Positions 2,351 through 43,460 of a stretch of DNA of 52,123 nt are shown piece after piece. This stretch comes from a virus (taxonomy: Duplodnaviria > Caudoviricetes): positions 1-52,123 of the IMG/VR virus record IMGVR_UViG_3300042673_000631. The stretch is one strand, 5' to 3'. The notes under the pieces were generated by a model, which had not been told where the DNA came from, ran no database searches, and saw only the letters and a list, made by a program, of their open reading frames with translations. The translations under genes and the position numbers were made by a program. Each line of letters starts with the position of its first letter. Within the stretch, counting starts at the first letter, position 1.

Positions 2351-2380
2351 GTGGGGTGATGCTTCGGCTCACCCCATTTT
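2351..2380 (+). terminator. Probable intrinsic terminator of the early island
   Basis: GGGGTGA-TGC-TTCG-GC-TCACCCC stem-loop followed by ATTTT. Confidence 0.6.
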
Positions 2381-2394
2381 GCTATCCTCGCCAT

Positions 2395-4702: not shown

Positions 4703-6408
4703 TGCCGTACAAGATTGAGCAGAGGGCTGACAAGTTTGTTGTTGTTCGTGAAGACGGCGGGAGAGTTGTTGGTACGCATTCGTCTAGGGCTAAGGCGACG
4801 GCTCATGTGCGGGCTTTGTATGCAAATGTTAAGGATGCCATTGAGAAGGCAAAGTTTGCTTCTCGTAGCGAAGCAGGCAAGTACGCCGCTCACATTCGGT
4901 GGATGCGAGAGCGGGGTATGGAACCGTTAACGCCTGATGCTTGGCGTAGCCAGAACGCTCAACCAGTTCAACCGACAAGAAGTTCTTATGAAAGTTCGTT
5001 AGATGCGATCACAAGTTTTGCTAGTGATGAGTTTCAAAGCAGATTGCGTGATGCCGGTGCTTCTATAAGGGGTAGTAGGTATGACGGTGGCAGATTGGTT
5101 CCGTTAGGAGAATATTTAAATATTCAAAACGAAATGTCTGTGGTTAGAGTTCGTAACCCAAATAATCCTGTGAATACAATAATTATTGGTTCTCCTCCTC
5201 TGATGGCGGTTGAACGAGAAGTCAATGAACTGGGCGGGTTAGTGCATAATGCGATACTAGAAAAAATGAAACAAGACGGACATATTTTGCCAAACGGTGA
5301 ATTTAATACTGCCAAACACGAAGCGTTAATGCAAGTTCGTGACGAATCGCAGGCTGTTGTTGATGAGATTAGAGCCAAAGCCAAAGAATTAGGGCTACAA
5401 CAGTTCACTGGTTATGAAAACGGTGCCCAAACTGAAGAAATGAAAATTGGGTGGCGTGGAGATCCTAAAGATATAGATACTGCGGACCTCCCTCCTCGTC
5501 TCAAAAATTTGCACGAAAAATGGGACACACTGCACCAAGAATTTTACGAAATTCCGTGGAGTGAACGAGATGCGAATGTTTCAAAAAGAGAACAGTTAGA
5601 TGCCGCTAAAGACGAATACGAGAAAGCCGCGCTCGCCGATTTTGAAACTTGGTTTAACGCTAACCACAATCCGTCAGGATCTGGAAGTCACAAAGATCAG
5701 TTTTCAAAAATAAGTAATAATCACAACAACAATATGAGAGCGGTCTGGTCTTATCCAAATTATGTGGATCGGTATGCTGAAAGTTTTAGTAAAGTCATGG
5801 AAGATCTAAATATTTCTGCCAAGTCACAAATTGGTAAATCTGACCAAATTGATTTAAGTAGAAGTAGGTTGACCAAAGCAGAAAAAGAAAAGTTTGCTAG
5901 GGACATTCACACATTTTTTCCTGCTAAAGCAATCAAAATTTTTAGTGATAGATATGGCTTACTGAAAGTAACAAAATCCAAAGGTGGTGGGCATTGGAAT
6001 GTTAGTGATGTACAAATTTTGACATCTAATTCGGAAGGTACGAACATACATGAATTTATGCATGCTTTAACTTATGCGGATCGTCGGGCTAACTTTGTGG
6101 AACAAGCATTTCTTATGCGACGGCAAACAGTTGGTGGGCGTAATAATCAGCCTATTAAAGAACGCATTGTTAATGGTTGGGAAAAACCTAAACAAACTTA
6201 TGACGGAGGAAGAGGTAGACGGTTTGACTCTCTATATATTCGTGACGAGTTTGCGGATGAATATACGGGCAGGCATTATTCGTCTGGTCATACCGAAACT
6301 ATGACAACTGGTTTGGATCGCCTGTCTGAAGGTGGCACTCATATTGAAGATCAGGATCACATGAACTCTACTTTAGGTTTGCTTGTAGCGATTGGGTTGG
6401 GACAATGA
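4699..6408 (+). CDS. Tagged head-cargo protein 1: small N-domain, SRSEAG..RW tag, C-terminal zincin metallopeptidase
   Basis: IEKAKFASRSEAGKYAAHIRW at 4843-4902; HEFMH at 6049-6063 with downstream DEYTGRHY...TETMTTG. Confidence 0.7.
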   Translation: MMPYKIEQRADKFVVVREDGGRVVGTHSSRAKATAHVRALYANVKDAIEKAKFASRSEAGKYAAHIRWMRERGMEPLTPDAWRSQNAQPVQPTRSSYESSLDAITSFASDEFQSRLRDAGASIRGSRYDGGRLVPLGEYLNIQNEMSVVRVRNPNNPVNTIIIGSPPLMAVEREVNELGGLVHNAILEKMKQDGHILPNGEFNTAKHEALMQVRDESQAVVDEIRAKAKELGLQQFTGYENGAQTEEMKIGWRGDPKDIDTADLPPRLKNLHEKWDTLHQEFYEIPWSERDANVSKREQLDAAKDEYEKAALADFETWFNANHNPSGSGSHKDQFSKISNNHNNNMRAVWSYPNYVDRYAESFSKVMEDLNISAKSQIGKSDQIDLSRSRLTKAEKEKFARDIHTFFPAKAIKIFSDRYGLLKVTKSKGGGHWNVSDVQILTSNSEGTNIHEFMHALTYADRRANFVEQAFLMRRQTVGGRNNQPIKERIVNGWEKPKQTYDGGRGRRFDSLYIRDEFADEYTGRHYSSGHTETMTTGLDRLSEGGTHIEDQDHMNSTLGLLVAIGLGQ

Positions 6409-9221
6409 TTAGGTTCGGGTATGTCCAGAATGGTGTTCAGCGGTTTGCTGAGTGGACTGAAGAGTCTGGGCTTGTATGCGAAGACGATTTGCTTGATGCC
6501 GTCAATCTTTTGATTGGGGCTAAGGCTCCTGTTAAGTGTTCTTGGGTCGGGTATTTGATGGAAGCGTCTGTTGATACTCCTGTGCAGGCGTGGGGGACTA
6601 TCAATAAGGCATTGAAGTGGTGTAATGGTGTTGAGTTGGTTCGTTGTACGCCACCGTTGATTGAGTATGACGAGTTTTCGGAACCTGAAGAGGATCTGCT
6701 TGAGAAAGCAACTTTTAGTTCACGATCTGAAGCAGGCAGATATGCCGCCCAACAGCGTTGGAAGAACCATGCGAAACAAGAAACGCTGTTAACTCCAACC
6801 GATGATGTTTCTTTGGCACAAAAAACTGGTCAACCAATTACATGGTTGCTTCCTGCTACACGGGATATGCGGTTAAAAGGTTTGTTAAGTAGTTTGGCTC
6901 CTCATTTTATTGCTACTGGTGTGTCAGTCCAAGATTTTGACTCTGTGTTGGGTGATCCAGCAATTAAACCGTTGATTAAATATTTGGAAGATAAAGGTAT
7001 TGTTGATATACCAGATTTTTATAGTTCTGAGGGTGCGACTAATGCTGAGTTGGTTGCTCACGGGTTAATTGTTTCGGCGATGCAAGACCTTGCTTTGAAG
7101 ATGAGGTCTAGCAGTTTGGATGTTGACCGAAGCAAATCGTTCAATCAGGCAATTCAGATCGCTACTGATGGTTTTCCAACAGTCAACATGGGTATTACCG
7201 CTTTTGAGATGATGATGGATGAGGGCGGTCGTTACAAGACACAGTTTGAGGCTGGTGATTCTGGTGGATATTTTAGTCCAGATTTGCGGGCGGCTTTTGA
7301 ATCTAGCGTGTTGGGTTTACATCCTGACATGGATGCGACTAAGCGTCCCGTGTATGGCACTATGCAGACCTCAACAAGTTTAAAAACAAGTGAAGATGCT
7401 CAAATGTACGGTGGCATTGTTTTGCAGTTAAAGAATAATGTTCGGGATCGGACAACTGTTGCTTACAACGATTCGTTGGGTATGGCGACAAGAACTGCTC
7501 CAGCAAACAGTGTTAAAGATGATTCTGGTGGCATGTTTCGTACTGGCATGATTACGGAACCGTTTTTTTATGTTGAGGCTCAGATTCATGGTGGTGTCAA
7601 CATGGATGATGTTGATGCTGTTTGGATTCACAATTTTACGGGTGTAGATGCTGAGGCTCCTCGTCGTGTAAGGGAAGCGTTGGATGCGAATGGGTACACG
7701 GATGTTCCTGTGTTGCGTGTGGGCGTGGACGAACCTGTGGAGAAAGCGAAGTTCAGTTCACGAAGTGAGGCAGGTAGGTATGCGGCTCACATTAGGTGGA
7801 TGAATGAGCGTGGTATGACTCCGATGACCGCCGACCAGTGGAATGCACAGAACTCTGGTGGTTCGGAGCGCATGCGAAAGATTAAAAGCATGCAAGCGGA
7901 TGTTTCTAAGCGACTTAAAAACTTGAATGATGTTTTGGTTAAGTCTGGTTTGGCATCTGAGGGAATGTGGAACCAAGGAAGATTAGATAGTAATGGTGAT
8001 TTAAAGTATGTTGTTGTTGATCCTAAAGATTGGGATAAGACCAGCGTTCCTGAGGTAAGTAAAAGTCCGATGGCGGCATGGCTTGTTGAAGTAGACATAA
8101 AAAACCCAGAGAGTCCTTTTGCAACATATCAAGTTCCTAATGCTGAGGTCATGGCTTTGATGGAGGATGTTAAAACTTTAGGTTCGTTAATTGAAGAAGA
8201 AGTTCAAGAGCGGATCAACGCACAAAATATTCGTTTGGCAACTGGAGCAGAAGCATCCCGTGACTTTACTTTAAAAATTGTTAACGCCCAGAGAGTGATA
8301 ACGCATTACGAAACAATCACTTCCAGATTTTTGAATGATTTCATCACTTTTAAAGCAGATCCGAATGACCCAACACCAAAATTTCAACAATATGTTAAGT
8401 CAGGTCAACCTAAAATGATTGGGAGCCTTGTTGATTATGCCCCAAGTTTGGGAGAATTTATTGAAAGTAATAACAGTGCTGACGAAAAAGTTTTGCTTTC
8501 TGCTTTAATAGAAAAAACGCGATCTTCTGTTCTTGAATTAAACCAATTAGGATTTGAGCAGAACACTTCGGCAAAATATCGGCGTGAAGTTTTGGCTGAA
8601 ATTCGTTCTTTCGGTGCTGACGAAGGTACTCCTTATGAAATTGTTACTGGTTTCAATTTCCCGAATGGGGCACCTGTAGAAGTCCGTATTGCTGATGCGA
8701 TGCAAAATTTACCAACGGCATGGATTGACAATTTAAAAACTTACACGCAAACAAAAACTACGCATAGAGTGTTAAGAGCAAAAACTGTTAACGAAATGCA
8801 ATCAGGGTACATTGAAGCGAATCATATAATTCAAACTTCGGCAAATGCTCAGACTGCTTTTGTTATCCACGAATTGGTTCATGCTGTTGAAGCGTCAAGC
8901 CCAGTCATGCGAGCAATGGTTCATTCTTTTGGTGTCAATAGAAGAGTCGGTAATTTTAGACCTTCAGAAGAAAAGTTTGGTAGCACTTTTGCTCAAAGGT
9001 TACAAACTGGGATTTGGGAAGAATCTGGGCGATCTGGTTTCGTTGAAGATAGTTATTTTGATAAGTATTCTGGGCGTGTGTACGGCGGGTTCGCGTATTC
9101 TGCTCACGAACAGTTGACTACGGGGACAGATTATTCGTTGTTTGTCAATACGATTCGTCCGCATGACCGTATTGACTCGGATCAGTTGACTTTTACATTA
9201 GGAATGTGGGCTTCAGCATGA
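6405..9221 (+). CDS. Tagged head-cargo polyprotein 2: partner domain, tag, DUF3626-like domain, tag, zincin metallopeptidase
   Basis: Tags at 6702-6761 and 7740-7799; YKTQFE/RPVYG/RTT..DS/YVEAQIHGGV motifs; HELVH 8868-8882. Confidence 0.7.
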   Translation: MIRFGYVQNGVQRFAEWTEESGLVCEDDLLDAVNLLIGAKAPVKCSWVGYLMEASVDTPVQAWGTINKALKWCNGVELVRCTPPLIEYDEFSEPEEDLLEKATFSSRSEAGRYAAQQRWKNHAKQETLLTPTDDVSLAQKTGQPITWLLPATRDMRLKGLLSSLAPHFIATGVSVQDFDSVLGDPAIKPLIKYLEDKGIVDIPDFYSSEGATNAELVAHGLIVSAMQDLALKMRSSSLDVDRSKSFNQAIQIATDGFPTVNMGITAFEMMMDEGGRYKTQFEAGDSGGYFSPDLRAAFESSVLGLHPDMDATKRPVYGTMQTSTSLKTSEDAQMYGGIVLQLKNNVRDRTTVAYNDSLGMATRTAPANSVKDDSGGMFRTGMITEPFFYVEAQIHGGVNMDDVDAVWIHNFTGVDAEAPRRVREALDANGYTDVPVLRVGVDEPVEKAKFSSRSEAGRYAAHIRWMNERGMTPMTADQWNAQNSGGSERMRKIKSMQADVSKRLKNLNDVLVKSGLASEGMWNQGRLDSNGDLKYVVVDPKDWDKTSVPEVSKSPMAAWLVEVDIKNPESPFATYQVPNAEVMALMEDVKTLGSLIEEEVQERINAQNIRLATGAEASRDFTLKIVNAQRVITHYETITSRFLNDFITFKADPNDPTPKFQQYVKSGQPKMIGSLVDYAPSLGEFIESNNSADEKVLLSALIEKTRSSVLELNQLGFEQNTSAKYRREVLAEIRSFGADEGTPYEIVTGFNFPNGAPVEVRIADAMQNLPTAWIDNLKTYTQTKTTHRVLRAKTVNEMQSGYIEANHIIQTSANAQTAFVIHELVHAVEASSPVMRAMVHSFGVNRRVGNFRPSEEKFGSTFAQRLQTGIWEESGRSGFVEDSYFDKYSGRVYGGFAYSAHEQLTTGTDYSLFVNTIRPHDRIDSDQLTFTLGMWASA

Positions 9222-10192
9222 AATTAGATTGGTTGACCGTTGACGGTGACAGTATTTCGTGGGATAACGGGGTGGTTGATGCCCCGCAAGAGTTTTTGGA
9301 CAATGTGGACTTTCTGGTTGATGCGAAGGTTCGTGTTCGGTCGCCTCGGTTTTATTTTGCTGAGGAGGTTGCTGGTATGGACACGATGTTGGGGGCTTTG
9401 TTGACGATTGAGTTTTTGTTGGATGTTTTGGGTGTTGGTTTGGTTGAGGCTCCGATGCCGTTTGGGGTGTCGGATGTTTTTGTGACTGATAATCACGATG
9501 TGTTTGATGGTTCGGGTGAGTTTGAGAAGGCTATGTCTCGGAGTGAAGCGGGCAGGTATGCGGCGGAACAGCGTTGGAAGAACCATGCGAAGAAGGTTGA
9601 TCCTGTTCGGGTGCTTGATCCGCAGTATCAGAAAGTTGCTGATCGGATTAACGCTGGTACAAAATCAGTAACTGATGCTGGTTTCCAAATTGAAATAATC
9701 AATTCTCCTGAAGATCGGCAACGCATATTGGAGATGCATACAAAATTTAAAGATTTTGTTGTTGAACAAAGGAATTTGTGGCGAGATACAAAAGGAAAAG
9801 AAGGTAAATATTTTTCTGATAGAACAATTTCTGGTCTTCAGTTAATGACAACTTCTATAAAAAGGGGAGCAACACGAGGGACAACAATTGTTGTTCACGA
9901 TGGATCATTAGTTGCTGGTGCCGCTCTTGCTCATATTCAGACAAACAGTATGGCTGATGGTAAACCTATGTCAATTTGGCTTATGGGGTCGGCTCATATA
10001 GTTGAAGGTGCTGGTTCTGCTATGTATGGCGCGCTTTTGAAATGGGGTCAATCTCAAGGTGTTACATCTATTGAATTAGATCCGTTACCTGATGCTAAAA
10101 CTTTTTGGCAGACAAAAATGAGAATGATTTGGACTGGTGAAGAAATGGTTTATTCTGATAGCAAAATTGGAATGATTGGGGCGTTGAAATGA
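9218..10192 (+). CDS. Tagged head-cargo protein 3: partner domain, tag, GNAT-like acetyltransferase
   Basis: FEKAMSRSEAGRYAAEQRWKNH at 9524-9586; GAGSAMYGALLKWG...AKTFW GNAT motif A/B-like; ATGA overlap start 9218. Confidence 0.65.
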   Translation: MKLDWLTVDGDSISWDNGVVDAPQEFLDNVDFLVDAKVRVRSPRFYFAEEVAGMDTMLGALLTIEFLLDVLGVGLVEAPMPFGVSDVFVTDNHDVFDGSGEFEKAMSRSEAGRYAAEQRWKNHAKKVDPVRVLDPQYQKVADRINAGTKSVTDAGFQIEIINSPEDRQRILEMHTKFKDFVVEQRNLWRDTKGKEGKYFSDRTISGLQLMTTSIKRGATRGTTIVVHDGSLVAGAALAHIQTNSMADGKPMSIWLMGSAHIVEGAGSAMYGALLKWGQSQGVTSIELDPLPDAKTFWQTKMRMIWTGEEMVYSDSKIGMIGALK

Positions 10193-11268
10193 TCGGGTCG
10201 TTGGATGATATGGATGATGCGATGCCTGATCTATTGGATTGGCTTCGTTCTAATGTTGAGTTTGAGAAAGCAAAGTTCAGTTCTCGTAGTGAGGCTGGGA
10301 AGTATGCGGCTCATATTAGGTGGATGAACCAGAGGGGTATGACTCCGTTGTCTGCTGAGGCTTGGACGGCTAGTCAGAGTGCTGATGCGACACCTGTTGT
10401 TACGGCTCCGACTGTACCGTCACGGTTTACTGCTACTGGTATGTGGTGGGATGCACAACCGCCCGCTCTTGCTTCTATGAAAGATGCGATCACATGGTTG
10501 CAGGATAAATGGGGTGGCACAACAAAAGATCAACGGCGTAGATTCAGAGTAAAACTGAATGCTATGGGAAGTAACCCCAAAACGGATCATTTGGCTCAAG
10601 CGTATGCCATTGCAATGGATAACTTGTTTAAATTTGCACCTATCGTGGCGGAAACTATTGAAGAAGTAGTTTGGGATGAAAATCAAATACGGAATTCGTG
10701 GGGTCAGGCTAGTCGTGATGGTCACAGTCTAAATTTCATTGCAAGCACTTTTGTACAAACTTTGATACAGCCAGATGGAACAGTTATCCCTTCGGAGCAA
10801 TATGCGTTGTTTGCAAAAGAACAAGCATTTTCAACGGGGTTCAAATCTTCAAGGTCGCTGAGTAGCACTTTTTATCACGAGTTTGGGCACCACATTGGGT
10901 TTGCCGCTGGTAATAAAGCGTTGTACGGCGATGTTAAAGAAGTTAGACCATCCTTGTATGCGGATTCAGATGATCGTAAAAAGTACAATCGTGAACTTGC
11001 CAAATTGATTAGCCCGATTCTTAAAGAGCATTACGGAGATGAAAGTCGTGCAAGAATTGAACTTGATGATAAAGCGCAATATAAAATACGGGGAAAAATA
11101 GAAGAAGACATATCCAAATATGCTTTGACTAACTACGACGAATTGGTTGCGGAATCAGCGGCACAGTATTTTGCCGCCAAATTTGAACCTGACCAACCGC
11201 CAGCGTCACCGTTAGCAATCAAAATTGTTGAGACATTATTGAATTACATAGAAGGAGAGAACAAATGA
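10189..11268 (+). CDS. Tagged head-cargo protein 4: tag, zincin metallopeptidase
   Basis: FEKAKFSSRSEAGKYAAHIRW at 10264-10323; HEFGH 10876-10890 and ISKYALTNYDELVAE third-ligand motif. Confidence 0.7.
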   Translation: MIGSLDDMDDAMPDLLDWLRSNVEFEKAKFSSRSEAGKYAAHIRWMNQRGMTPLSAEAWTASQSADATPVVTAPTVPSRFTATGMWWDAQPPALASMKDAITWLQDKWGGTTKDQRRRFRVKLNAMGSNPKTDHLAQAYAIAMDNLFKFAPIVAETIEEVVWDENQIRNSWGQASRDGHSLNFIASTFVQTLIQPDGTVIPSEQYALFAKEQAFSTGFKSSRSLSSTFYHEFGHHIGFAAGNKALYGDVKEVRPSLYADSDDRKKYNRELAKLISPILKEHYGDESRARIELDDKAQYKIRGKIEEDISKYALTNYDELVAESAAQYFAAKFEPDQPPASPLAIKIVETLLNYIEGENK

Positions 11269-11501
11269 CTGAGGGTTTAACGATCTGTTGGGCTTGTAAG
11301 CACTTGCGAGCAGATTCAGCCGTTGTTGACGGTTGGATGGTTTCCACATGCGACGCTTTCCCTGACGGTATTCCGATCAAGATCTTTATTGATGGGTTTG
11401 ACCATCGGAAAGAATTTGGTGGCGATAACGGGGTACGCTTTGAACCGATAACGGTTGATATGGGCGTTGAGGCTCTAAAAATAGTTGAGGAGTTGTCGTG
11501 A
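11265..11501 (+). CDS. Small Cys/His protein (CxxCxH...CxAFPxGIP...H), candidate partner of upstream peptidase
   Basis: CWACKH...CDAFPDGIP...FDHRKEFGGDNGVRFEP; translationally coupled. Confidence 0.7.
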   Translation: MTEGLTICWACKHLRADSAVVDGWMVSTCDAFPDGIPIKIFIDGFDHRKEFGGDNGVRFEPITVDMGVEALKIVEELS

Positions 11502-11680
11502 TTTTGATTGCAATGGTTGATAATGCGAAGGTGTTTGACATTGAAGACGATGATCCGATGTTCGGCAAGCGTGTTGTTCTGGAGCGTGGCGGTGTTCAGA
11601 GTGCCCCGATCTTGTTGGAGAATGTGGTTACGAAAATGTCTATGAGCAAGTGGGAATGGATCAACCCCCCTACTAAATAA
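11498..11680 (+). CDS. Small hypothetical protein
   Basis: GAGGAG RBS, GTGA overlap. Confidence 0.6.
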   Translation: MILIAMVDNAKVFDIEDDDPMFGKRVVLERGGVQSAPILLENVVTKMSMSKWEWINPPTK

Positions 11681-11710
11681 TGCTTATCGGGTTTACTGTA
11701 AGGTGACCGC

Positions 11711-13720
11711 ATGCATACACACGAAATAGACCAGTGGATTAACGGCGATCTGGCGTGGGAAGATTTGTCTGTTGAAGCGCAACGAAGTGTTGATGCTGAT
11801 GCGATGAAGGCTGAACCTGTCGCCGAAATGGAACTGGTTCACAAGTCGGTTGCTGAGAAGCGATTCACTTTGGGTCCGTGGTATATCCCTAATCGGTTGG
11901 ATGCTCATAATGAGTGGACGGACGCTGACGAGTTGCAGGCTGGTTTGTGGGATTATGTTCGTAAGGGTGATCGTGGTATCCGTTTACAGCACAATCGTGA
12001 CATTGTGGCTGGTGAATGGGTTGAGGCTATGCAACTGCCTGTACCGATGCGAATGCAGAAAGCGGCTGACGGCGGGGATGTTGAATATCCTGAGGGGACA
12101 GTGTTTTTGGGTGTTGTTTGGAAGCAGTGGGCGTGGGATCTGGTGAAGAACGGCAAAATTAAAGGTTTTTCTATTGGTGGTTCGTCGGCTCGTCTGCCAA
12201 TTGAGCCTGTTTCTAAGGCTGTCGGGTTCAAACCGATGTTTATTCCTGCGTTGATTCGGGTTTCAGGTAAGTCTTTTGCTGTCCGTCCAGATGGTGGAGG
12301 GGTTCGGGTTTCGTCGGGTTCTGATGCTGTTGTGTTTGATCCGTATCGGGCTGATGTGGTTGCTAAGTCTGTTTCTGGAGCGCAGTTTGCTGATGCGAAG
12401 ACGATGGTGGCGATTTCTAAAGCGATCTTGACTGGCAATGTTGATGCTGGAATGTGGGCTGATACTGGGGTTTCGTGGGTTTTTGTTAAGGCTAAGTTCA
12501 GTTCTCGTTCTGAGGCGGCTCGTTACGCCGCTCATATTCGTTGGGCTACTGAACGAGGTGAAACCCCGATGGGTGCGGGCGAGTTTTCGGAACAAATTAA
12601 GTCGTCTGCGGATTATGCGATGATGAATTTGAAGAAAAATCGTGATGCTTTGGCTTCCAAGATGGAGTTTCCGCATAACGATCTTCCTGTTGGTCCGTTG
12701 GGTTTGCCAACTTCTCCTGCTGGTAAGTCTTTGTTTAACACTTCTCCGTCGCTTGGCGGGCATGTTGATTTTGACGCTATGGGCAAGTACATGATGGATC
12801 GTTTAGATCAACCGAACATGGGTTTTGGTAAGGCGGGGTTGCCTACAGAAGCACCGTATGATGTTCTTCGTCGTTTTATGACTCCTGAACGGCGGGCTTT
12901 GCACGATGCGATCGTTGACGCTCATTTGGCTGGCAAAACGGCTAGAGATGATACCCCCGAATACACTTGGCTTGGTGGTGGTGGTGCTTCTGGTAAAACC
13001 AGCATTTTGGAATCTGGTGCCGCTAGTGTTCCGACCCGTGTTTTGAAGAATGGTTCGGCTGTACCAAGTGGTGATATGCACTCTGTTGAGATCAATGCTG
13101 ACGAAATCAAAGATTTGTTACCAGAGTTTTTGGCGTTGACAAAGGGTGGGGAAAAAAGGGTTTATGTCACTGCTGACGGTAGAGAAAAGCCTTATGAATT
13201 GGGTCGTTCAACTGAGCGGGCACGATTTGTTGCGGCTGGTTTTACTCACGAAGAGTCGTCTATCCTTGCGAAGCGTATTAACTCCGAGGCTATGTACAGA
13301 GGTTTGGACATTGTGATGGATGGTACTGCTGACGGCAAACCGGGGGCACAAGCGAAGAAGGTTGCTGTGGCTCAAGCAAACGGCTATAAAACTCGTTTGA
13401 TTATGGTGACTATCCCTACCGAAGTGGCTATTGTTCGTTCTAATGAGCGAGGTATTACTTCGGGGCGTAAGGTTCCTGAGTTCGCTTTGCGTGACGCTCA
13501 TGTTGGGGCTTCGGCAAGATTTTTGGAAACGGCACCGCTGTATGACTCTTTTGAGGCTTATGATAACTCAGGGCGACCGCCACAAAAATTTGTAAGTAAG
13601 AGTACCAAGGGTGGTCGGGTTACTATTCAAAATAAAGCCCTGTATGATGCTTTCTTAGCGAAGGCTGGCGAAAGTTTGGGCGAGTCAACAGCAAGGGATG
13701 AACCGTGGACATTAGCGTAA
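11711..13720 (+). CDS. XkdF-like (S78-type) prohead protease fused via tag to zeta-toxin-like P-loop kinase
   Basis: N-term GPWYIPNRLDAHNE...LQHN...GT..W..VKNGKIKGFSIGG; tag 12485-12544; GGGGASGKT 12974-13000, INADEIK, HEESS, VMDGT, GRKVP, YDNSG. Confidence 0.8.
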   Translation: MHTHEIDQWINGDLAWEDLSVEAQRSVDADAMKAEPVAEMELVHKSVAEKRFTLGPWYIPNRLDAHNEWTDADELQAGLWDYVRKGDRGIRLQHNRDIVAGEWVEAMQLPVPMRMQKAADGGDVEYPEGTVFLGVVWKQWAWDLVKNGKIKGFSIGGSSARLPIEPVSKAVGFKPMFIPALIRVSGKSFAVRPDGGGVRVSSGSDAVVFDPYRADVVAKSVSGAQFADAKTMVAISKAILTGNVDAGMWADTGVSWVFVKAKFSSRSEAARYAAHIRWATERGETPMGAGEFSEQIKSSADYAMMNLKKNRDALASKMEFPHNDLPVGPLGLPTSPAGKSLFNTSPSLGGHVDFDAMGKYMMDRLDQPNMGFGKAGLPTEAPYDVLRRFMTPERRALHDAIVDAHLAGKTARDDTPEYTWLGGGGASGKTSILESGAASVPTRVLKNGSAVPSGDMHSVEINADEIKDLLPEFLALTKGGEKRVYVTADGREKPYELGRSTERARFVAAGFTHEESSILAKRINSEAMYRGLDIVMDGTADGKPGAQAKKVAVAQANGYKTRLIMVTIPTEVAIVRSNERGITSGRKVPEFALRDAHVGASARFLETAPLYDSFEAYDNSGRPPQKFVSKSTKGGRVTIQNKALYDAFLAKAGESLGESTARDEPWTLA

Positions 13721-13986
13721 ACCGTATTAGCCGTTTGATGCAGGCTATTGTTTTGGGCGAGGACGCTGAGGCGTTATGCGAATCGCCTGAGGAGTTGCAG
13801 ATTCTTCCGCAGTTGCGTGAGGAGTGCCAGTTTGAAGATGGAATGATTTTGGATTTCCAGAATGATTCTGTGGATGCGAATGCTTGGGATTGTGCTGGGT
13901 TTGATCGTGATGCTTGGGAAGCGGCGGGGATGCCTGACGATGCTTGGGCGTTTGTGAAGCCGTATGTATCAGAGGCTTGGGCTTGA
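13705..13986 (+). CDS. Highly acidic small protein, candidate antitoxin of the zeta-like domain
   Basis: Overlaps end of kinase gene; very D/E-rich. Confidence 0.55.
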   Translation: MDISVNRISRLMQAIVLGEDAEALCESPEELQILPQLREECQFEDGMILDFQNDSVDANAWDCAGFDRDAWEAAGMPDDAWAFVKPYVSEAWA

Positions 13987-14011
13987 CACGGGTTTAGTGT
14001 TTTGGTACCCT
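13983..14011 (+). promoter_or_regulatory. Repeated phage promoter copy 3
   Basis: TTGACACGGGTTTAGTGTTTTGGTACCCT, 17-nt spacer. Confidence 0.75.
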
Positions 14012-14029
14012 TTGAATGAAGGAGGGTAA

Positions 14030-14413
14030 ATGAAACCAATTGCTGTATACGGAACCCTGATAAAAGGATTCCACAACTCACGGCTGTGGGATGGGCTTGC
14101 TACCTACGAGGAGTGCATCATCCACGATTTCCGTCTTGTCACTCACGGGTGGTACCCGTATGCGATACCAGACGAGGGATCAATAACAGTCGGTCAAATT
14201 ATTACGCCGACAAGTGAAGTTAACGCTTCAACGATCTTGTCTCGGCTTGATTATTTAGAAGGTGTTCCCGATCATTACAGTCGTGAATCTGCAACTGTTG
14301 AACTTGAGAATGGTGCGATTGTTACTGCATGGATTTATGTTCCTGTGAGTGATGAATCAAGTTTGGATCCTGTGCCAGAAAACGACTGGCGACTTTACGC
14401 AAGTCTTGTTTAG
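14030..14413 (+). CDS. Gamma-glutamylcyclotransferase (AIG2/GGCT-like)
   Basis: IAVYGTLIKGFHN, YPYA, LDYLEG..HYSR, AWIYV; GGAGGG RBS. Confidence 0.85.
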   Translation: MKPIAVYGTLIKGFHNSRLWDGLATYEECIIHDFRLVTHGWYPYAIPDEGSITVGQIITPTSEVNASTILSRLDYLEGVPDHYSRESATVELENGAIVTAWIYVPVSDESSLDPVPENDWRLYASLV

Positions 14414-14450
14414 TTGATGTAGTTCAGGGTTATCAGTACCGTTCTCTGCG

Positions 14451-15149
14451 ATGGCTTCGCGGAAAATGGTAAACATGAACATTGAAGAGACTTCTGGTGT
14501 TGACCATCCCGCGCACATGGACGAAGGATGGATCCTTATGAAGAACTCTGGTTTAAACACCGAAGATTTTGAAACGATTGAAAAAATGGTCGCTTTGGAA
14601 TCAGAACTTGCTGACGCTCAGGCTCGCCTTGCCTCTTTAGAAACTGAAGAGACAACCGAAGAGACAACCGAAGACATGGACTACATGGACGACGATGCGA
14701 TGATGAAGTCGGCTCCGCCTGCTGTTCGTGAAGCATTGTTGAAGGCTCGTAACGAGGCTTTTGTTGCTCAGGAAGAACTACGCAAAGAGCGTGAAGTCCG
14801 TCTTGACGCTCACGCAATTGCTAAGAGCATGGACGATTATGGCAATCTTGCTATTGACCACGAAGAATTTGGTCCTGCCCTTCGCCGTTTGGAAGAACTT
14901 GACGCAACAGTCGTTGAGATCATCGCTAAGGCTTTGCAGTCCGCTAACGCTCAGGCTGAATCAGCCAACATTTTTGCCGAAATCGGCTCTTCATACATGC
15001 CAAATACTGCTGGCAGTTTCCAGAAGATTGAATCGCTCGCTAAGTCCGCTGTGACCAAGGGCGAATATAAGACCGTTGAGCAAGCAATCGCTGGCTTGAT
15101 TGAAACCAACCCATCGTTGTACGCAGAGTACATCGCTGAAACCCGCTGA
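14451..15149 (+). CDS. Capsid scaffolding protein
   Basis: IEETSGVDHPA N-terminus, coiled-coil, acidic, C-terminal NPSLYAEY; upstream of capsid genes. Confidence 0.7.
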   Translation: MASRKMVNMNIEETSGVDHPAHMDEGWILMKNSGLNTEDFETIEKMVALESELADAQARLASLETEETTEETTEDMDYMDDDAMMKSAPPAVREALLKARNEAFVAQEELRKEREVRLDAHAIAKSMDDYGNLAIDHEEFGPALRRLEELDATVVEIIAKALQSANAQAESANIFAEIGSSYMPNTAGSFQKIESLAKSAVTKGEYKTVEQAIAGLIETNPSLYAEYIAETR

Positions 15150-15167
15150 CCAGAAGAGGACACACTC

Positions 15168-15563
15168 ATGGCATACGAAATTTCCAATTACAGCGTCAAA
15201 ATCACCCTTGTCGCCGCCGCTGACCTTAGTGCGAAGCAGTATTACTTCGTCAAGATCAACACTTCGGGTCAAGCCGCGCTTTGTGCGGCGGCTACTGACA
15301 AGCCGATTGGCGTTCTTCAGAACAGCCCAACCGCTGGTCAAGAAGCCCAAGTTCTAGTTATTGGTGGAACTAAGGTCGTTTGTTCCGCAAGCCTAGACGA
15401 AGGTGTTGCTATCGGCACGACTTCGGCTGGTAAGGCTGGAGCAAAGGTTGTCGGAACTGACACCACTAACTACATCGTCGGTCAAATCATCCTTGCGGGT
15501 GGAGCCGACTTGGATATTGCAACCGCTGTTATTAACTGTGCATCGCCTGCCCGCGCCGCCTGA
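15168..15563 (+). CDS. Capsid decoration/cement protein (DUF2190-like)
   Basis: AAADLS...IGVLQN.P.AG...GKA pattern; between scaffold and MCP. Confidence 0.7.
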   Translation: MAYEISNYSVKITLVAAADLSAKQYYFVKINTSGQAALCAAATDKPIGVLQNSPTAGQEAQVLVIGGTKVVCSASLDEGVAIGTTSAGKAGAKVVGTDTTNYIVGQIILAGGADLDIATAVINCASPARAA

Positions 15564-15580
15564 GTCAAAAGGAATAAATC

Positions 15581-16531
15581 ATGCCCCAGCCCACACAAAA
15601 TCAGGTACATGTTGATGCGATTCTGACGAACATCAGTGTCGCTTACATGCAAAAAGCCGAAAACTTCATTGCAAACAAGATCTTCCCGATCGTTCCTGTT
15701 GAGAAGCAGTCGGACAAGTTCTTCAAGTACACCAAGAACGACTGGTTCCGTGACGAAGCACAGCGACGCGCTGATGCGACGGAATCTGCTGGTGGCGGTT
15801 ACAACTTGTCAACCGATTCGTACAACGCTGAAGTGTGGGCTTTCCACAAGGATGTTGGCGATCAGACTCGTGCAAATGCTGATGCTCCTATCAATGTGGA
15901 TCGTGAAGCGGTTGAGTTCATTACGAGCCGTTTGTTGCTCAAGATGGAAACTGAATTCGTTTCAAGTTATTTCACGAGTGGCATTTGGGCTACTGACAAC
16001 ACTCCGTCAAACTTGTGGTCGGATTACACCAACAGTGACCCGTTGAACGATGTTGAAGATGCGAAGCGAGCAATCCTTTCCACTACTGGTTTTGAACCGA
16101 ACACGCTTGTGCTTGGTTACGATGTTTTCAAGGAATTGAAGAATCACCCAGATCTCGTTGACCGTATCAAGTACACCTCGTCTTCGGTTATCACGACTGA
16201 CATGATCGCTCGTATGTTTGATGTTGATCGTGTTGTGGTTTCAAAGGCTGTCAAGGCAACCAACAATGAAGGTGCCACTGGTGCTTATGACTTCACTGCT
16301 GGTAAGAATGCGCTCTTGTGCTATTCGGCTCCGTCACCGGGTCTTCTCCAGCCGTCTGCTGGTTACATCATGTCTTGGACTGGTGTTTCTGGTGGTCTTG
16401 GTCAGACGATCGGTTCAAGCCGTTTCCGTATGGAATCAGTGAAGGCTGACCGTATTGAAGCAGAAATGGCTTTTGACATGAAGGTCGTTGCCGCTGACCT
16501 CGGTTACTTCTTCGCCAGCGTGGTTTCGTGA
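15581..16531 (+). CDS. Major capsid protein (HK97 fold)
   Basis: HVDAILTNISVAY...FIANKIFPIVPV...PNTLVLG...GYFFASVV; AAGGA RBS. Confidence 0.85.
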   Translation: MPQPTQNQVHVDAILTNISVAYMQKAENFIANKIFPIVPVEKQSDKFFKYTKNDWFRDEAQRRADATESAGGGYNLSTDSYNAEVWAFHKDVGDQTRANADAPINVDREAVEFITSRLLLKMETEFVSSYFTSGIWATDNTPSNLWSDYTNSDPLNDVEDAKRAILSTTGFEPNTLVLGYDVFKELKNHPDLVDRIKYTSSSVITTDMIARMFDVDRVVVSKAVKATNNEGATGAYDFTAGKNALLCYSAPSPGLLQPSAGYIMSWTGVSGGLGQTIGSSRFRMESVKADRIEAEMAFDMKVVAADLGYFFASVVS

Positions 16532-16764
16532 GCGAATGGCTCGTGCTTAAGCCGATCAAGGTCGGTGGAGGCAATTTCATTCAAACTGGTGAACGAGTTC
16601 TTGCTGACAATTGGCGGAATCGTCGCTCTCTTGAATCTGGACGCTATATCCAGAGGATTGAGGTTACGGTTCCGCCTGTTGACAGTGATGCGATCGTTGA
16701 AGATGTAGTTAAGCCCGTTAAGAAAGTTGGGCGACCGCCAAAGGTTGCTGTAGAGGAAGGTTGA
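16528..16764 (+). CDS. Small virion-associated protein
   Basis: Coupled to MCP; KKVGRPPK tail. Confidence 0.6.
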   Translation: MSEWLVLKPIKVGGGNFIQTGERVLADNWRNRRSLESGRYIQRIEVTVPPVDSDAIVEDVVKPVKKVGRPPKVAVEEG

Positions 16765-16768
16765 TTCA

Positions 16769-17194
16769 ATGACTTGGAGTTATGGCGGTGATCCTGCTAA
16801 CTCCGTTATTGATCGGGTCAGGTTCCTTTCGGGAGATACTGACACTACGAACCAGCAGGTAAGTAACGAAGAGATTTCGTTCTTGTTGTCGGAGAATAAC
16901 TCTGATGCTTATTTGTCGGCGGCTGGTGTGTGTGAGGCGGCGGCTTCTAAGGCTTCTGGTAAGGCTGATTATTCTCGTAGTGTGGGCGATTTGTCTATTT
17001 CTACTCAGTATTCGGCGCATGCGAACTCTTTGTTGAAGTTGGCTGAGGTTTTGCGTATGAAGGCTTCTCGTCGTAATCCGCCGTCTGTGAATTTCTATAC
17101 GGATGACAGTGGGAATGTTTTTGGGGCTATGAAGTTTGCTGTTGATATGGATCATAATTATGGTTCGTATGACACTCGGACTGCTGTGGATTGA
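16769..17194 (+). CDS. Head-tail adaptor
   Basis: MTWSYGGDP...DRVRFLSGDTD...SNEEI...SVGDLSIS pattern. Confidence 0.75.
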   Translation: MTWSYGGDPANSVIDRVRFLSGDTDTTNQQVSNEEISFLLSENNSDAYLSAAGVCEAAASKASGKADYSRSVGDLSISTQYSAHANSLLKLAEVLRMKASRRNPPSVNFYTDDSGNVFGAMKFAVDMDHNYGSYDTRTAVD

Positions 17195-17197
17195 TGT

Positions 17198-17527
17198 ATG
17201 GCGTTGGAGACTGCTTTTTTGGAGTTGATGCCTCAGACGGTGACTGTTTATTCTCAGTCGGCTAAGACGGAGTATGGGGTTCAGTCGTGGTCGGCTTCGG
17301 GGACTTCTGTTAATTGTCGTGTGATGGAAACTGGGACTTTGGCGCATGATGCGAATGGTCGTCAGGTGTATGAGACTGGCAAAATCATTTTTTATGGGAC
17401 TCCTACGGTGAATTTGAGTTCTCGGATTGCTTTGCCTGATGGTTCTTTCCCTGTGTTGTTGACGGTGAATGTTCATAGTGATGAAAATGGGCTTAGTCAT
17501 ACCAGTGTCAGTTTTGGTCGTGCCTGA
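17198..17527 (+). CDS. Head closure / head-tail joining protein
   Basis: Position, size, beta-rich, RIALPDG. Confidence 0.65.
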   Translation: MALETAFLELMPQTVTVYSQSAKTEYGVQSWSASGTSVNCRVMETGTLAHDANGRQVYETGKIIFYGTPTVNLSSRIALPDGSFPVLLTVNVHSDENGLSHTSVSFGRA

Positions 17528-17937
17528 TGGCTCGTGTGGGGAATGCGACGATTCTTTTGGTGGGGGAGAATCGGATGATTGAGGCTTTGAAGTATTTGGG
17601 TAAGTCTGGGACTGTGCCGAAGGTGGGGACTGCGTTGTATATGGTCGCTAATAAGGTGTTTAATGAGTCTCAGAGGCAGGTTCCGTTTCGGACTGGTGCT
17701 TTGCAGTCGTCTGGGTTTGTGTCGCCGTATTCGTATGACGGTCAGACGGTTCATGTTCGTGTTTCGTATGGTAATACGGCTGTTGCTTATGCTGAGAAGC
17801 AACACGACATTAACTTTCCGCATGCACCGGGTCGTAAGTGGCATTATTTGAGTGATCCGCTTAATGACAATCGGGAGAATTTTGAAGCCCAGATGAATAC
17901 GGTGTTGATGCGATTGTTGAAGAAGGTGATGTACTGA
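17527..17937 (+). CDS. HK97 gp10-like neck protein
   Basis: VPFRTGALQSS...YAEKQH...YLSDP motif. Confidence 0.75.
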   Translation: MARVGNATILLVGENRMIEALKYLGKSGTVPKVGTALYMVANKVFNESQRQVPFRTGALQSSGFVSPYSYDGQTVHVRVSYGNTAVAYAEKQHDINFPHAPGRKWHYLSDPLNDNRENFEAQMNTVLMRLLKKVMY

Positions 17938-18332
17938 TGGCTGTTTTGGATGCTTTGGGTGCCCGTTTGGTTTCGTCTGGGGTTGGGACTTTGGGTACGG
18001 ATTTGTGGTTGGCTCAGATGCAAAGCAGTCCTGATGCTTCGGTTGTTTTGATGGAGCAACAGGGTGGGGTAGATCATGTCTTTGGTGCTTCGGTAGCGGG
18101 CACTTATAGGCATACTGTGCTGGTTGTGGCTCGTGCTGGGCGTAATGATTACCCGTCAGCCAGAACTAAGATGCAGGCTGTTCAGGCGAGTCTGGGTGCT
18201 ATTAGAAACCAAACGATTTCGGGGGTTGCTTTCATGTCTGTTTTGGATACTACGGGTCTTTATCCTGCTGGGATGGATGGTGATGAGCGTCCTATGGTTG
18301 CTTGTGAGTTCACTTGTTGGGTGACACCGTGA
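17937..18332 (+). CDS. Tail terminator / minor capsid-like protein
   Basis: Position; DGDERP C-terminal motif. Confidence 0.65.
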   Translation: MAVLDALGARLVSSGVGTLGTDLWLAQMQSSPDASVVLMEQQGGVDHVFGASVAGTYRHTVLVVARAGRNDYPSARTKMQAVQASLGAIRNQTISGVAFMSVLDTTGLYPAGMDGDERPMVACEFTCWVTP

Positions 18333-18541
18333 ACGAGGGCTTGGTTGCGGTTCATAAGGCTCTGTTGGCGGCTCAGGCTTGTTTGGATGCCGCTCAGTCT
18401 GCTTTGGTGGCGGCTTTGGCGATCCAACCTGACTTTGACGATGCGACGGGTTGCCCACATCCAGTAGAGGCTCGGATAAATGTGGCGACTATGGGCGTGG
18501 AAAGTGAAGAGTTCTGCAATGCCTGCGGAAAAAATATCTGA
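18329..18541 (+). CDS. Small protein with C-terminal zinc ribbon
   Basis: GCPHP...FCNACG; GTGA overlap. Confidence 0.55.
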   Translation: MNEGLVAVHKALLAAQACLDAAQSALVAALAIQPDFDDATGCPHPVEARINVATMGVESEEFCNACGKNI

Positions 18542-18686
18542 TCCAGATCCTTACGGTCGCCAGATCCGTCCAGCGGACGAAAACCCCCGCTGTTGGCGGT
18601 GTGCCCGCCTTTTGGCTATCCGTTTGACCCGTCCGTGGCAGGTTATGTGCCCCCGTTGTAAAGCACAGAATAGTCAGGAAGTTTGA
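18519..18686 (+). CDS. Mu Com-like zinc-finger (translational regulator-like) protein
   Basis: RCWRCARLLA...CPRCKAQN matches Com-family CxxC-x~15-CPRC pattern. Confidence 0.7.
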   Translation: MPAEKISDPDPYGRQIRPADENPRCWRCARLLAIRLTRPWQVMCPRCKAQNSQEV

Positions 18687-18719
18687 CCTGAACGGAATAT
18701 GACGGTAGGGTTACGACTC

Positions 18720-19265
18720 ATGTTGAGACGGATTCTTGTTTTGTCGGTTTTGTTGGTTGGTTGTGGCAGTTTGAAGGGGGCTGATTCCCCGCCGACAACT
18801 TCGGTGACGATGCGAACAGATCCCCCTGTGATTGTTCCAGAAACAACTGTGGTGATCCCGACCACCACTACTGTTCCCGTGACTACCACGACTGAGGTTG
18901 ATTGGATTGGTGTTGCTGAGACTTGGGCTTTGCAAACTGATGTGGCTCGTTTTGTTCACGGGCGTTGCGGTGAGTGGCACGATCTGGCGATGACGGTCGG
19001 TTGGCATGAAGAGGAATGGGAAACATTAAGCACCGTTCTGTGGACTGAATCACGATGCGATCCTTCTGCATGGAACGGACATGATGCGGGTTTGAGCCAG
19101 ATAAATCAGATTCATACTGAATGGCTAAACCAAATGGGTTTTTCGCACCCTGATGACATGTTTGATCCTGCGTTGAATCTGGCGTTTGCTTACAAGTTGT
19201 ATTCGTCAAGGGAAGAGAAGGGTCAATGCGGTTGGAAGCCGTGGACTGAACCCTGCAACGACTAA
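18720..19265 (+). CDS. Lipoprotein with SLT/lysozyme-like lytic transglycosylase domain
   Basis: Lipobox LLVGC, Thr/Pro linker, ESRCDPSAWN...GLSQIN...FDPALNL; own promoter TTGACC-17-TAGGGT. Confidence 0.75.
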   Translation: MLRRILVLSVLLVGCGSLKGADSPPTTSVTMRTDPPVIVPETTVVIPTTTTVPVTTTTEVDWIGVAETWALQTDVARFVHGRCGEWHDLAMTVGWHEEEWETLSTVLWTESRCDPSAWNGHDAGLSQINQIHTEWLNQMGFSHPDDMFDPALNLAFAYKLYSSREEKGQCGWKPWTEPCND

Positions 19266-19393
19266 ATAAGAGTTCAGACGATGCGATGATGGTTGTGGCG
19301 TACACTCAAGTTGTCGTGACCATAGTGTCCCCAGCCCATCCGTGACCTTTGTGTCTAGGGCGCGCTGGGAACGCGCGTCTAAAAGGATTCTTT

Positions 19394-19618
19394 GTGGCGA
19401 AGTACAAGGTGTTAATTGGAATTGATACTCCGAGCGGTCGGTATGAGGCTGACGCTCTAGTTGACCACACCTCCATTCCGTCCAAGTCCATTAAATGGTT
19501 GACCGACCAAAAGATCATTGAACTTGTTTCTGGCAAAGCACCTGAAGTGGTTGAAGAAACCGTTGAAGAGGTCGTTGAAGAGGTCGTTGAAGAAGAAGTT
19601 GAAGAAGGCGGTTTCTGA
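19394..19618 (+). CDS. Small acidic-tailed virion protein
   Basis: AAAGGA RBS then GTG; IKWLTDQKIIE, EEVV repeats. Confidence 0.6.
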   Translation: MAKYKVLIGIDTPSGRYEADALVDHTSIPSKSIKWLTDQKIIELVSGKAPEVVEETVEEVVEEVVEEEVEEGGF

Positions 19619-20340
19619 TGGCATTCGTTCACGGTAAATCAACAGTCGTTTTGTTTAATGCGACCAATCTCTCGCCGTATTTGAAGGAAGTTTCAGCCAA
19701 TCAGGGTATTGACATGTCGGATGTGACCGCTTTCGGTACTTCTGGTGCTAAGTCTTACATTCCGGGTTTGAAAGACGGAAAGATTTCGGCTTCTGGAATG
19801 TTTGACGGTGGCTCTGGTGCTAGTGACTCAGTGTTCCAAACGGCTTTGGGTGCCACTGTTGGCGACCTATCAGTTTTCCCTGACACTGATGCGATCGGTA
19901 AGCGTGGCTTCATTGCTGAATGCCACGAAACTTCATACAACTTGTCTAGCCCTGTTGCTGATGTAGTTCAGGCTTCAGCCGAATTTCAGGCAACTGGCGG
20001 AGTTGATTACGCAGTGAGCCTTCAGGCTCTTAGTGCCCAAACCGCTACAGGTAACGGAACTTCTGTGGATAACTCTGCTTCGTCTGCTAACGGTGGTGCA
20101 GGCATGTTGCATGTAACTGCCAACACGCAAGACAGTACGAGCATTGTCAAGATTCAGCATTCGTCTGACAACAGCACTTGGGCTGATCTTGTCACTTTTA
20201 CTACTGTTCCGACCGTCACAACGACTTCGGAAAAGATCGTGGTTGCTTCGGGAACCACTGTTAACCGTTACCTGCGAACCACTCGGACTATCGCTGGAAC
20301 GGGTTCAATCACCTACCAAACCTCATTCGCAAGAAAGTAA
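19618..20340 (+). CDS. Major tail (tube) protein paralog 1 with C-terminal extra beta domain
   Basis: MAFVHGKS...DVTAFGTSGAKSYIPGLKDGKIS; ~100-aa extension. Confidence 0.75.
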   Translation: MAFVHGKSTVVLFNATNLSPYLKEVSANQGIDMSDVTAFGTSGAKSYIPGLKDGKISASGMFDGGSGASDSVFQTALGATVGDLSVFPDTDAIGKRGFIAECHETSYNLSSPVADVVQASAEFQATGGVDYAVSLQALSAQTATGNGTSVDNSASSANGGAGMLHVTANTQDSTSIVKIQHSSDNSTWADLVTFTTVPTVTTTSEKIVVASGTTVNRYLRTTRTIAGTGSITYQTSFARK

Positions 20341-43419: not shown

Positions 43420-43460
43420 ACTTATGGAGGGAGAGAGGCTCCCACCAGAGAGGGGAAAAG

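Follow-up and report, generated by a model that had tools for sequence, protein, structure and literature searches.

We analysed a stretch of viral DNA of 52,123 bases (hereafter the window), which is the whole of virus record IMGVR_UViG_3300042673_000631. The record is estimated to be 98% complete, its + strand carries essentially all of the long open reading frames (ORFs), and it is a nearly complete siphophage genome. The focus of this study is a gene in its head region that joins an XkdF-type prohead protease to a kinase of the Zeta/AvrRxo1 family through a short conserved segment, here called the tag, together with a small acidic ORF that follows the gene directly. The features of this locus are listed below, with residue numbers referring to the 669 amino acids (aa) of the protease-kinase.

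11711-13720, + strand: protease-kinase gene, 669 aa, with an XkdF-type prohead protease, a middle region, the tag and a Zeta/AvrRxo1-family kinase (ORF list, Pfam, PHROG).
11828-12190, + strand: XkdF protease domain, residues 40-160 (Pfam PF14550, Peptidase_S78_2).
12191-12475, + strand: variable middle region, residues 161-255, of strands and helices (gappy alignment columns; differs among relatives).
12476-12550, + strand: tag, residues 256-280, a short strand and then a helix, SRSEAARYAAHIRW (match to the tag hidden Markov model (HMM), residues 256-280).
12593-13975, + strand: proposed cassette, the kinase from about residue 295 and the acidic ORF except its last 11 nucleotides (nt) (blastn, junction sequences).
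12668-13717, + strand: kinase domain as modelled, residues 320-669 (AlphaFold 2 (AF2) and structure matches).
12974-13000, + strand: GGGGASGKT (Walker A), residues 422-430 (motif scan).
13091-13111, + strand: INADEIK with D464 and K467, residues 461-467 (motif scan).
13247-13261, + strand: HEESS, residues 513-517 (motif scan).
13313-13327, + strand: VMDGT, residues 535-539, with DGT at 537-539 (motif scan).
13463-13477, + strand: GRKVP in the lid, residues 585-589 (motif scan).
Residues 617-620, + strand: YDNS (motif scan).
13705-13986, + strand: acidic protein of 93 aa, candidate cognate inhibitor (ORF list, homologues, co-occurrence, complex prediction).

A first-pass annotation, made from the letters of the window, had described an XkdF-like protease domain at about 11840-12190, a tag at 12485-12544, a P-loop domain carrying the six motifs above and an overlapping, very acidic 93-aa ORF behind it. 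Our analysis located all of these elements where they had been placed, with the tag core FSSRSEAARYAAHIRW at nt 12497-12544 (residues 263-278).

The protease part matched PF14550 with E 4.6e-9 (36.8 bits, above the cut-off of 24) and the head maturation protease family phrog_3017 with E 2.4e-10. Two alignments revealed near-invariant blocks that include DAH (64-66), LQHN (92-95) and GFSIGG (152-157), and residues H66, H94 and S154 were invariant across the alignments. The domain is almost invariant among relatives, yet it was folded with low confidence in the full-length model, with a predicted local distance difference test (pLDDT) score of 37-54. The middle region scored about 28-81 in the same model.

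To describe the distribution of the fusion, we searched a clustered protein collection and obtained 333 relatives at E<=1e-3 among 7,997 candidates. Both PF14550 and PF06414 (Zeta_toxin) were found in 116/120 of the relatives listed (the best of the 333), the other four being P0003, P0013, P0116 and P0117. The protease-kinase fusion is real and common, and its retention in these 116 relatives rules out an assembly artefact. In a collection of isolated phages, 18 records matched; 15 of them matched the protease only, and three entries of Cyanophage PSS2 matched the kinase part, where residues 391-651 aligned at 35.6% identity. A search of 185,579 bacterial and archaeal species genomes turned up no relative and so gave no host or prophage clue for the phage.

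HMMs of the protease, tag and kinase were then used to map these features in the 80 best viral loci, drawn from 303 confirmed of 333 matched stretches. The resulting census of 81 sources contained 26 protease-kinase fusion loci, 44 kinase-less loci and 11 loci with the kinase on another protein. Longer fusions of 915-1205 aa were observed in L013, L018, L021 and P0030, in the order protease-tag-(DUF)-tag-kinase, with DUF5872 and/or DUF6321 modules sitting between the extra tags. Among tagless loci, L034 encodes (2807-5827) a Ferritin-like domain (PF00210, E 6.7e-15) upstream of a Zeta kinase in one protein. Six further tagless loci, L038 (7450-7947), L044 (7540-8037), L046, L049, L054 and L073, carry 165-aa ORFs behind the protease gene, and by eye these sequences look like Dps.

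Next to the protease, the kinase domain gave matches both to Zeta_toxin (PF06414, residues 508-604, E 4.2e-16, 59.4 bits, above the cut-off of 22.3) and to a PHROG labelled 'minor head protein' (phrog_16619, residues 390-652, E 2.2e-25). The AF2 model of residues 320-669, built on a 46-row alignment, had a mean pLDDT of 90.2 and a predicted template modelling score (pTM) of 0.87. A Foldseek search of this model, a check of the kind that the first-pass annotation had proposed, found the Zeta/PezT fold, with E-values of 6e-10 for AvrRxo1-ORF1, 1.7e-9 for zeta and 1.2e-8 for PezT. Structure comparison ranked AvrRxo1-ORF1 first, with a score of 19.9 over 271 residues (root-mean-square deviation 3.6, model residues 3-348 on chain residues 88-420), followed by zeta (16.4 over 220 residues), PezT (15.3) and gonococcal zeta1 (11.8); polynucleotide kinases scored 9.9-11.6 and matched the P-loop core only. 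The closest fold is that of AvrRxo1, its N-terminal extension included. At the sequence level, a profile matched three PDB chains only, namely zeta 1gvn_B (E 5.4e-4), Pnkp1 (0.012) and PezT (0.11). AvrRxo1 was absent from the phmmer and profile matches at E<=1, and a single-sequence phmmer search against the PDB returned nothing at that threshold.

Zeta and AvrRxo1 have five catalytic residues in common (K/T/D/K/R), which in zeta are K46, T47, D67, K70 and R158 (PMC4938570). In the profile alignment, the zeta Walker A fell on GGGGASGKT, IDNDTFK (D67, K70) on INADEIK and EGT on DGT (537-539), and the first four catalytic residues were matched by K429, T430, D464 and K467. The lid arginines R576, R580 and R586 are present, and one among them is the candidate counterpart of zeta R158. 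Across 16 sequences of 34-89% identity, G428, K429, D464, K467, H513, E514, E515, S516, D537, G538, D541, R576, R580 and R586 were all invariant. On the strength of this invariance of the catalytic residues we rejected an inactive structural kinase.

The segment by which kinases of UDP-N-acetylglucosamine (UDP-GlcNAc, or UNAG) bind their substrate was not matched. Here, zeta VIEGTGRTT aligns to VMDGTADGK, and GTGRTT on DGTADGK places an invariant Asp (D541) where zeta has an Arg that presumably takes part in UNAG binding. AvrRxo1 also lacks the UNAG-binding residues, and it phosphorylates nicotinamide adenine dinucleotide (NAD) and nicotinic acid adenine dinucleotide (NAAD) at the adenosine 3'-OH; its purification required co-expression with its partner (PMC5087710). 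From sequence and model, we read the window domain as a catalytically competent small-molecule kinase of the Zeta family, of AvrRxo1-like structural type, with nucleotide-type metabolites (NAD-like compounds or a UDP-sugar) as candidate substrates. The earlier description of a zeta-toxin-like kinase held for the family, the fold and the catalytic residues. Its link to UDP-GlcNAc was refined, the closest solved relative being AvrRxo1, a NAD 3'-kinase.

The kinase family is large: 2429 cluster representatives matched at E<=1e-3, of which 1528 also passed E<=1e-10. Among the 2429, the 150 representatives listed are 239-4861 aa long, so the kinase is mostly a module of long proteins. Proteins of 192-613 aa with the kinase numbered 2, one of which is a fragment of the window protein itself.

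The acidic ORF starts with GTG, overlaps the end of the kinase gene by 16 nt and is preceded by a Shine-Dalgarno-like AAGGGA (13693-13698) 6 nt before the GTG. Its product has an isoelectric point (pI) of 4.05, with 21 D+E and 5 K+R. A database search returned three close relatives only, at 72-92% identity. Pfam gave no match, the best PDB sequence match was an MbtH-like protein at E 0.48 that we judged to be chance, and the protein atlas held no usable match. The Atlas model of the protein alone was poorly structured (pLDDT 0.55).

We looked for its counterparts by position, screening the loci for ORFs of pI <6 that start from -160 to +120 nt of the stop codon. An ORF of 69-111 aa and pI 4.1-4.7 was found at -49 to +19 nt from the stop of protease-kinase genes, with the exception of L007, where it is listed from an upstream start (147 aa, pI 5.5, -157 nt). 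The 20 ORFs that were aligned align weakly and have in common an N-terminal helix that ends in glycine. An HMM built from these 20 ORFs and searched in the 81 sources matched 25 ORFs, each directly 3' of a kinase gene. Matches were found at 24/26 protease-kinase fusion loci (the misses being L047 and L050), at 0/44 loci with no kinase and at 1/11 loci with the kinase on another protein. The last is L062, in which a free-standing 313-aa kinase is followed by a 64-aa ORF that lay outside the training set and matched at E 7.9e-10. These ORFs thus appear by sequence to be a new family of small acidic proteins, which among the 81 sources occur only directly after kinase genes. At L021 (6174-7286), the acidic domain (residues 1-75) is fused N-terminally to the next tag-bearing protein, whose tag spans 91-115, so the candidate inhibitor may sometimes go where tagged cargo goes.

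The sharpest evidence linking the kinase to the acidic ORF is an insertion or deletion seen in L005 and L006, the closest relatives of different architecture, whose protease is 75% identical to that of the window. Both encode a 296-aa protein with the protease and tag only (L005 7448-8338, L006 7520-8410), and both are collinear with the window on either side. By blastn, L005 5994-8329 corresponds to window 10254-12592 at 82% and L005 8339-14357 to window 13976-19988 at 94.7%, and the absent stretch is exactly window 12593-13975. This comparison suggests that the kinase and its putative inhibitor form a two-gene cassette, which we propose is gained or lost by phages as a unit.

To examine whether the two products could interact, we predicted their complex with own alignments for both chains, three runs and three controls. 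The median score was 0.71 (runs 0.71, 0.16 and 0.77) and the best control scored 0.00; the mark of the tool is reached by 116/157 solved complexes and by 2/215 mismatched pairs. At least 5% of contacts are shared among the runs, and the pLDDT of the partner is at least 55. The predicted interface comprises kinase-fragment residues 101-106, 142-145, 183-210, 217-224 and 262-274, which in full-length numbering correspond to the P-loop, D464, HEESS, DGT and the Arg lid. The prediction supports a model in which the acidic protein covers the active site of the kinase, and the acidic ORF has the appearance of a dedicated inhibitor of that enzyme.

The tag between the protease and the kinase contains nine invariant positions (F263, R266, S267, A269, Y272, A273, A274, R277 and W278). 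In the full-length model it forms a strand (256-259) and a helix (266-281), with pLDDT about 61-69. The pattern [RK]SEA[GAS][RKQ]x[AG][AG]xx[RK]W matched 8 times in 7 window ORFs and never in shuffled sequence, whether the nucleotides (200 mononucleotide shuffles) or the residues of the seven ORFs (500 shuffles) were permuted. All copies were found by both the pattern and the HMM.

4864-4902, + strand: tag copy in the 569-aa ORF 4699-6408.
6723-6761, + strand: first tag copy in the 938-aa ORF 6405-9221.
7761-7799, + strand: second tag copy in the same 938-aa ORF.
9539-9577, + strand: tag copy in the 328-aa ORF 9206-10192.
10285-10323, + strand: tag copy in the 359-aa ORF 10189-11268.
12506-12544, + strand: tag copy in the protease-kinase ORF 11711-13720.
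35529-35567, + strand: tag copy in the 539-aa ORF 34869-36488, outside the head module.
36653-36691, + strand: tag copy in the 354-aa ORF 36491-37555, outside the head module.

The last two ORFs lie behind the tail genes, far from the head module. The tag of about 25 residues comes in two subtypes, KAKFSSRSEAGRYAAHIRWMNERGMTP and KAMSRSEAGRYAAEQRWKNH. In the 938-aa protein, residues 271-359 match DUF3626 (E 2.8e-9) and the C-terminal part carries HELVH, and the 359-aa protein contains HEFGHH. Judged by eye from these motifs, the two are possible zincin-like peptidases, a type often found in polyvalent proteins.

Beyond the seven window ORFs, the tag HMM covered head-region genes of 28 tag-bearing loci, giving 189 sites in all, with 1-3 copies per protein, mostly in the first half, and the consensus K-(K/A)-S-F-G-G-(D/S)-R-S-(A/E)-A-G-R-Y-A-A-x-x-R-W. 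In L005 and L006, where the tag ends the protease with no cargo behind it, substitutions (S267V, A274E and W278R) fall on three positions that are invariant elsewhere, and the insertion or deletion of the cassette begins 16 codons past the tag. Both observations tie the tag to the domain behind it. The tag DNA of different genes is 70-85% identical over 52-206 nt (window against L005 742-845, 2590-2668, 3177-3390 and 4979-5054), so tags may act as recombination joints that shuffle cargo modules. No Pfam family covers the tag, its best PDB match was a 10-residue chance match at E 0.16, and our literature search found no paper that describes it. Co-occurrence singled out no receptor, with the scaffold-like, 131-aa and capsid proteins present in 16-20/29 tag-bearing and 36-42/52 tagless loci. 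Taken together, the tag array likely marks capsid cargo proteins, and the function of the tag may be encapsidation, cleavage or both.

The protease-kinase gene is placed between the portal/MuF genes and the scaffold/capsid genes of the window, in the following order.

2356-3834, + strand: portal (PHROG).
3803-4702, + strand: MuF-like head morphogenesis protein (Pfam Phage_Mu_F), a gene of its own, separate from the protease-kinase.
4699-11268, + strand: four overlapping genes with no function assigned, followed by two small ORFs and then the protease-kinase gene.
14030-14413: gamma-glutamyl cyclotransferase, 3' of the acidic ORF and inside the head module.
14451-15149, + strand: acidic scaffold-like protein (Pfam/PHROG scans).
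15168-15563, + strand: phrog_673 protein (Pfam/PHROG scans).
15581-16531, + strand: major capsid protein (Pfam/PHROG scans), with connector and tail genes downstream.

The MuF-like gene also matches two PHROGs that carry the label head maturation protease. Among the 44 window ORFs scanned against PHROGs, no further protease family came up, and the XkdF-type protease appears to be the sole recognisable prohead protease of this phage. An amidoligase and a glutamine amidotransferase (43410-44363 and 44381-45142) are encoded about 29 kb from the gamma-glutamyl cyclotransferase, a trio that suggests a peptide or amide modification pathway. Two adjacent genes, 19618-20340 and 20350-20766, both match the major tail protein families phrog_9522 and phrog_10528, as well as each other's, and look like a tandem pair of paralogues.

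A protease joined to a toxin-type kinase and followed by an inhibitor-like acidic gene suggests that the phage probably loads a guarded kinase into its head. We regard as fairly probable a joint reading in which the two enzymes travel as one polypeptide held by the tag, the acidic protein sits over the active site, the kinase and inhibitor form a cassette, and the capsid delivers the kinase to the next host. Specifically, the XkdF protease and the Zeta/AvrRxo1-family kinase would be made as a single chain through the conserved tag, and the acidic protein would bind over the ATP and substrate site, silencing the kinase in the producing cell as Arc1 does AvrRxo1 and epsilon does zeta. The protease would bring the kinase into the procapsid, where a maturation cleavage near the tag would free it, the inhibitor having been excluded from the procapsid or degraded. 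The kinase would enter the next host along with the DNA and there phosphorylate a nucleotide-type metabolite (NAD-like or UDP-sugar), weakening the host. We infer the packaging, release and injection from the architecture and from analogy to MuF or portal fusions.

Several observations weigh against this joint reading. The protease domain folds poorly in the model, and L005 and L006 count as one event. At 10/11 loci where a different head protein ends in the kinase, there is no acidic ORF, the protease gene starting there at the stop of the kinase-bearing gene, and the fusions L047 and L050 lack an acidic-family match, so the inhibitor is not universal. Most of the HMM matches are training members or near-duplicates, amounting to about 18 distinct sequences. 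Sequence searches linked the acidic family to none of Arc1, epsilon, PezA and the Pfam families, and the Arc1 motif KExFD(x25-27)(Y/L)ExxYY (PMC4938570) was not seen on inspection of the 20 aligned ORFs. One of the three complex runs scored 0.16, and the passing result may partly reflect the model's memory of the epsilon-zeta or AvrRxo1-Arc1 complexes. The sequence profile of the kinase reached zeta, Pnkp1 and PezT only and missed AvrRxo1. The phage itself is uncultured and has no prophage relative in the 185,579 species genomes. The first-pass proposal that the acidic ORF neutralises the kinase is thus strengthened as a specific link, through co-occurrence, joint loss and the predicted cover of the active site, and weakened as a universal need.

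A bolder version, which we hold to be speculative, makes the tag a portable address-and-processing label and a recombination joint for a capsid arsenal, and the kinase an injected AvrRxo1-like NAD 3'-kinase that spoils the NAD+ pool. If true, the tag would correspond in function to the capsid-targeting sequence in T4 or to the cargo-loading peptides of encapsulins, and the arsenal (the kinase, two HExxH proteins, the DUF3626 protein and others) would be loaded, cut apart and swapped. The NAD+ pool would be hit ahead of gene expression, against defences that consume NAD or use NAD-derived signals, and the private inhibitor would shield the producing cell.

Two alternatives appear unlikely to us, and equally so. 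The acidic protein could chaperone the kinase module in assembly or packaging, serving its solubility or its hand-over to the procapsid, and not be an inhibitor. Its co-occurrence with the kinase, its fusion to the next tag-bearing protein in L021, its poor structure when modelled alone and the first description of Arc1 as a required chaperone (PMC4938570) all fit this view. The predicted interface, on the P-loop, the catalytic Asp and the Arg lid, reproduces instead the inhibition mode of epsilon and Arc1, and the two roles are compatible with each other. In the other alternative, the kinase acts late in the producing cell, in the shutdown of host metabolism or a block to superinfection, and is not delivered, the fusion coupling expression or timing. 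A guarded toxin could indeed be freed once the protease is activated, and free-standing kinase genes such as that of L062 exist. Against this, relatives of the kinase reside overwhelmingly in long multidomain proteins and are also fused to head proteins, short proteins with the kinase are confined to the two described above, and the position between portal/MuF and scaffold/capsid genes fits that of predicted packaged effectors (PMC5512222).

We consider it improbable that the domain works as a polynucleotide (5'-OH) kinase, with nucleic-acid ends as its targets for repair or modification, perhaps to counter defences that cleave tRNA. Matches to such kinases cover only the P-loop core of 140-160 residues and lie 5-8 Z units below AvrRxo1 and zeta, which share the extensions too, and the D-x-x-K motif and a cognate small inhibitor are traits of the Zeta family. 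That the 93-aa ORF is no gene, its association being the by-product of an acidic out-of-frame or spacer region, is suggested by its short length, GTG start and lack of Pfam or PDB relatives, and can be put aside as highly improbable in view of its protein homologues at 72-92% identity, family HMM matches of E 1e-10 to 1e-30 in phages whose kinases share just 30-50% identity, the correctly spaced AAGGGA and the confident predicted complex with the kinase.

Compared with known systems, the guarded, head-borne kinase that we favour is closest in fold to AvrRxo1-Arc1 (AvrRxo1-ORF1:ORF2) of Xanthomonas, in which the antitoxin gene lies downstream of a Zeta-family NAD/NAAD 3'-kinase. Both have a small partner gene directly downstream, which in the window overlaps by 16 nt and is found at 24/26 fusion loci. 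Unlike AvrRxo1, to which it has no sequence-level match, the window kinase is carried by a phage head protease and not by a type III secretion signal, and the acidic protein lacks the double-tyrosine motif of Arc1 and any detectable similarity to it. The UDP-GlcNAc 3'-kinases of epsilon/zeta and PezAT differ in having GTGRTT where the window has DGTADGK, and they are not phage structural fusions. In epsilon/zeta and PezAT the antitoxin gene lies upstream, whereas the acidic ORF of the window lies downstream.

MuF toxins and polyvalent proteins share with the window the fusion of effector domains to head-assembly proteins, with predicted packaging and injection (PMC5576092, PMC5512222). Iyer 2017 reported a zeta-toxin-like kinase fused to MuF in phages, predicted it to be injected and proposed that it weakens the wall during injection (PMC5512222). 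Jamet 2017 found small putative immunity ORFs behind 89.4% of 191 MuF toxin genes (PMC5576092), and a small immunity-like ORF likewise stands downstream of the window kinase. Zincin HExxH domains, as in polyvalent proteins, also occur in neighbouring tagged genes. The window polypeptide differs from MuF toxins in having no MuF domain, MuF being a separate gene (3803-4702) and the protease the carrier. It differs from polyvalent proteins in its N-terminal XkdF protease, in effectors spread across many genes, each with its own tag, and in a new candidate inhibitor family; PMC5512222 places assemblin-like peptidases at C termini only and contains 0 occurrences of 'XkdF'.

The minor head protein of Cyanophage PSS2 (phrog_16619) is the sole isolated-phage match to the kinase part, and it differs in its long profile of 1440 positions and its annotation as a minor head protein. 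With the capsid-targeting sequence of the T4 internal proteins and the encapsidation tail of the HK97 protease, cargo is directed to the procapsid by a short peptide, and processing by the prohead protease follows. These signals are a likely analogue of the tag, with no sequence relation to it, and the tag differs in lying inside proteins, in up to 3 copies each.

Our literature search, which covered papers apart from their supplements, found none on a protease-zeta fusion. The MuF-toxin/polyvalent-protein theme and a zeta-like kinase fused to MuF are already known (PMC5512222). New here are the use of an XkdF protease as N-terminal carrier, a kinase of AvrRxo1-like structural type, a candidate inhibitor family that co-varies with the kinase and a cassette organisation delimited by tags. 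Injected phage proteins act ahead of phage gene expression, and few are understood outside T4, P1 and N4. With 2429 kinase cluster representatives, a candidate inhibitor in the cassette and an essential head protease as carrier, this locus is a widespread and well-delimited example, and its tag could become a capsid-loading tool if it proves to be an encapsidation signal. The locus links the zeta/PezT toxin-antitoxin systems, the plant-pathogen effector AvrRxo1 and the polyvalent effectors of phages.

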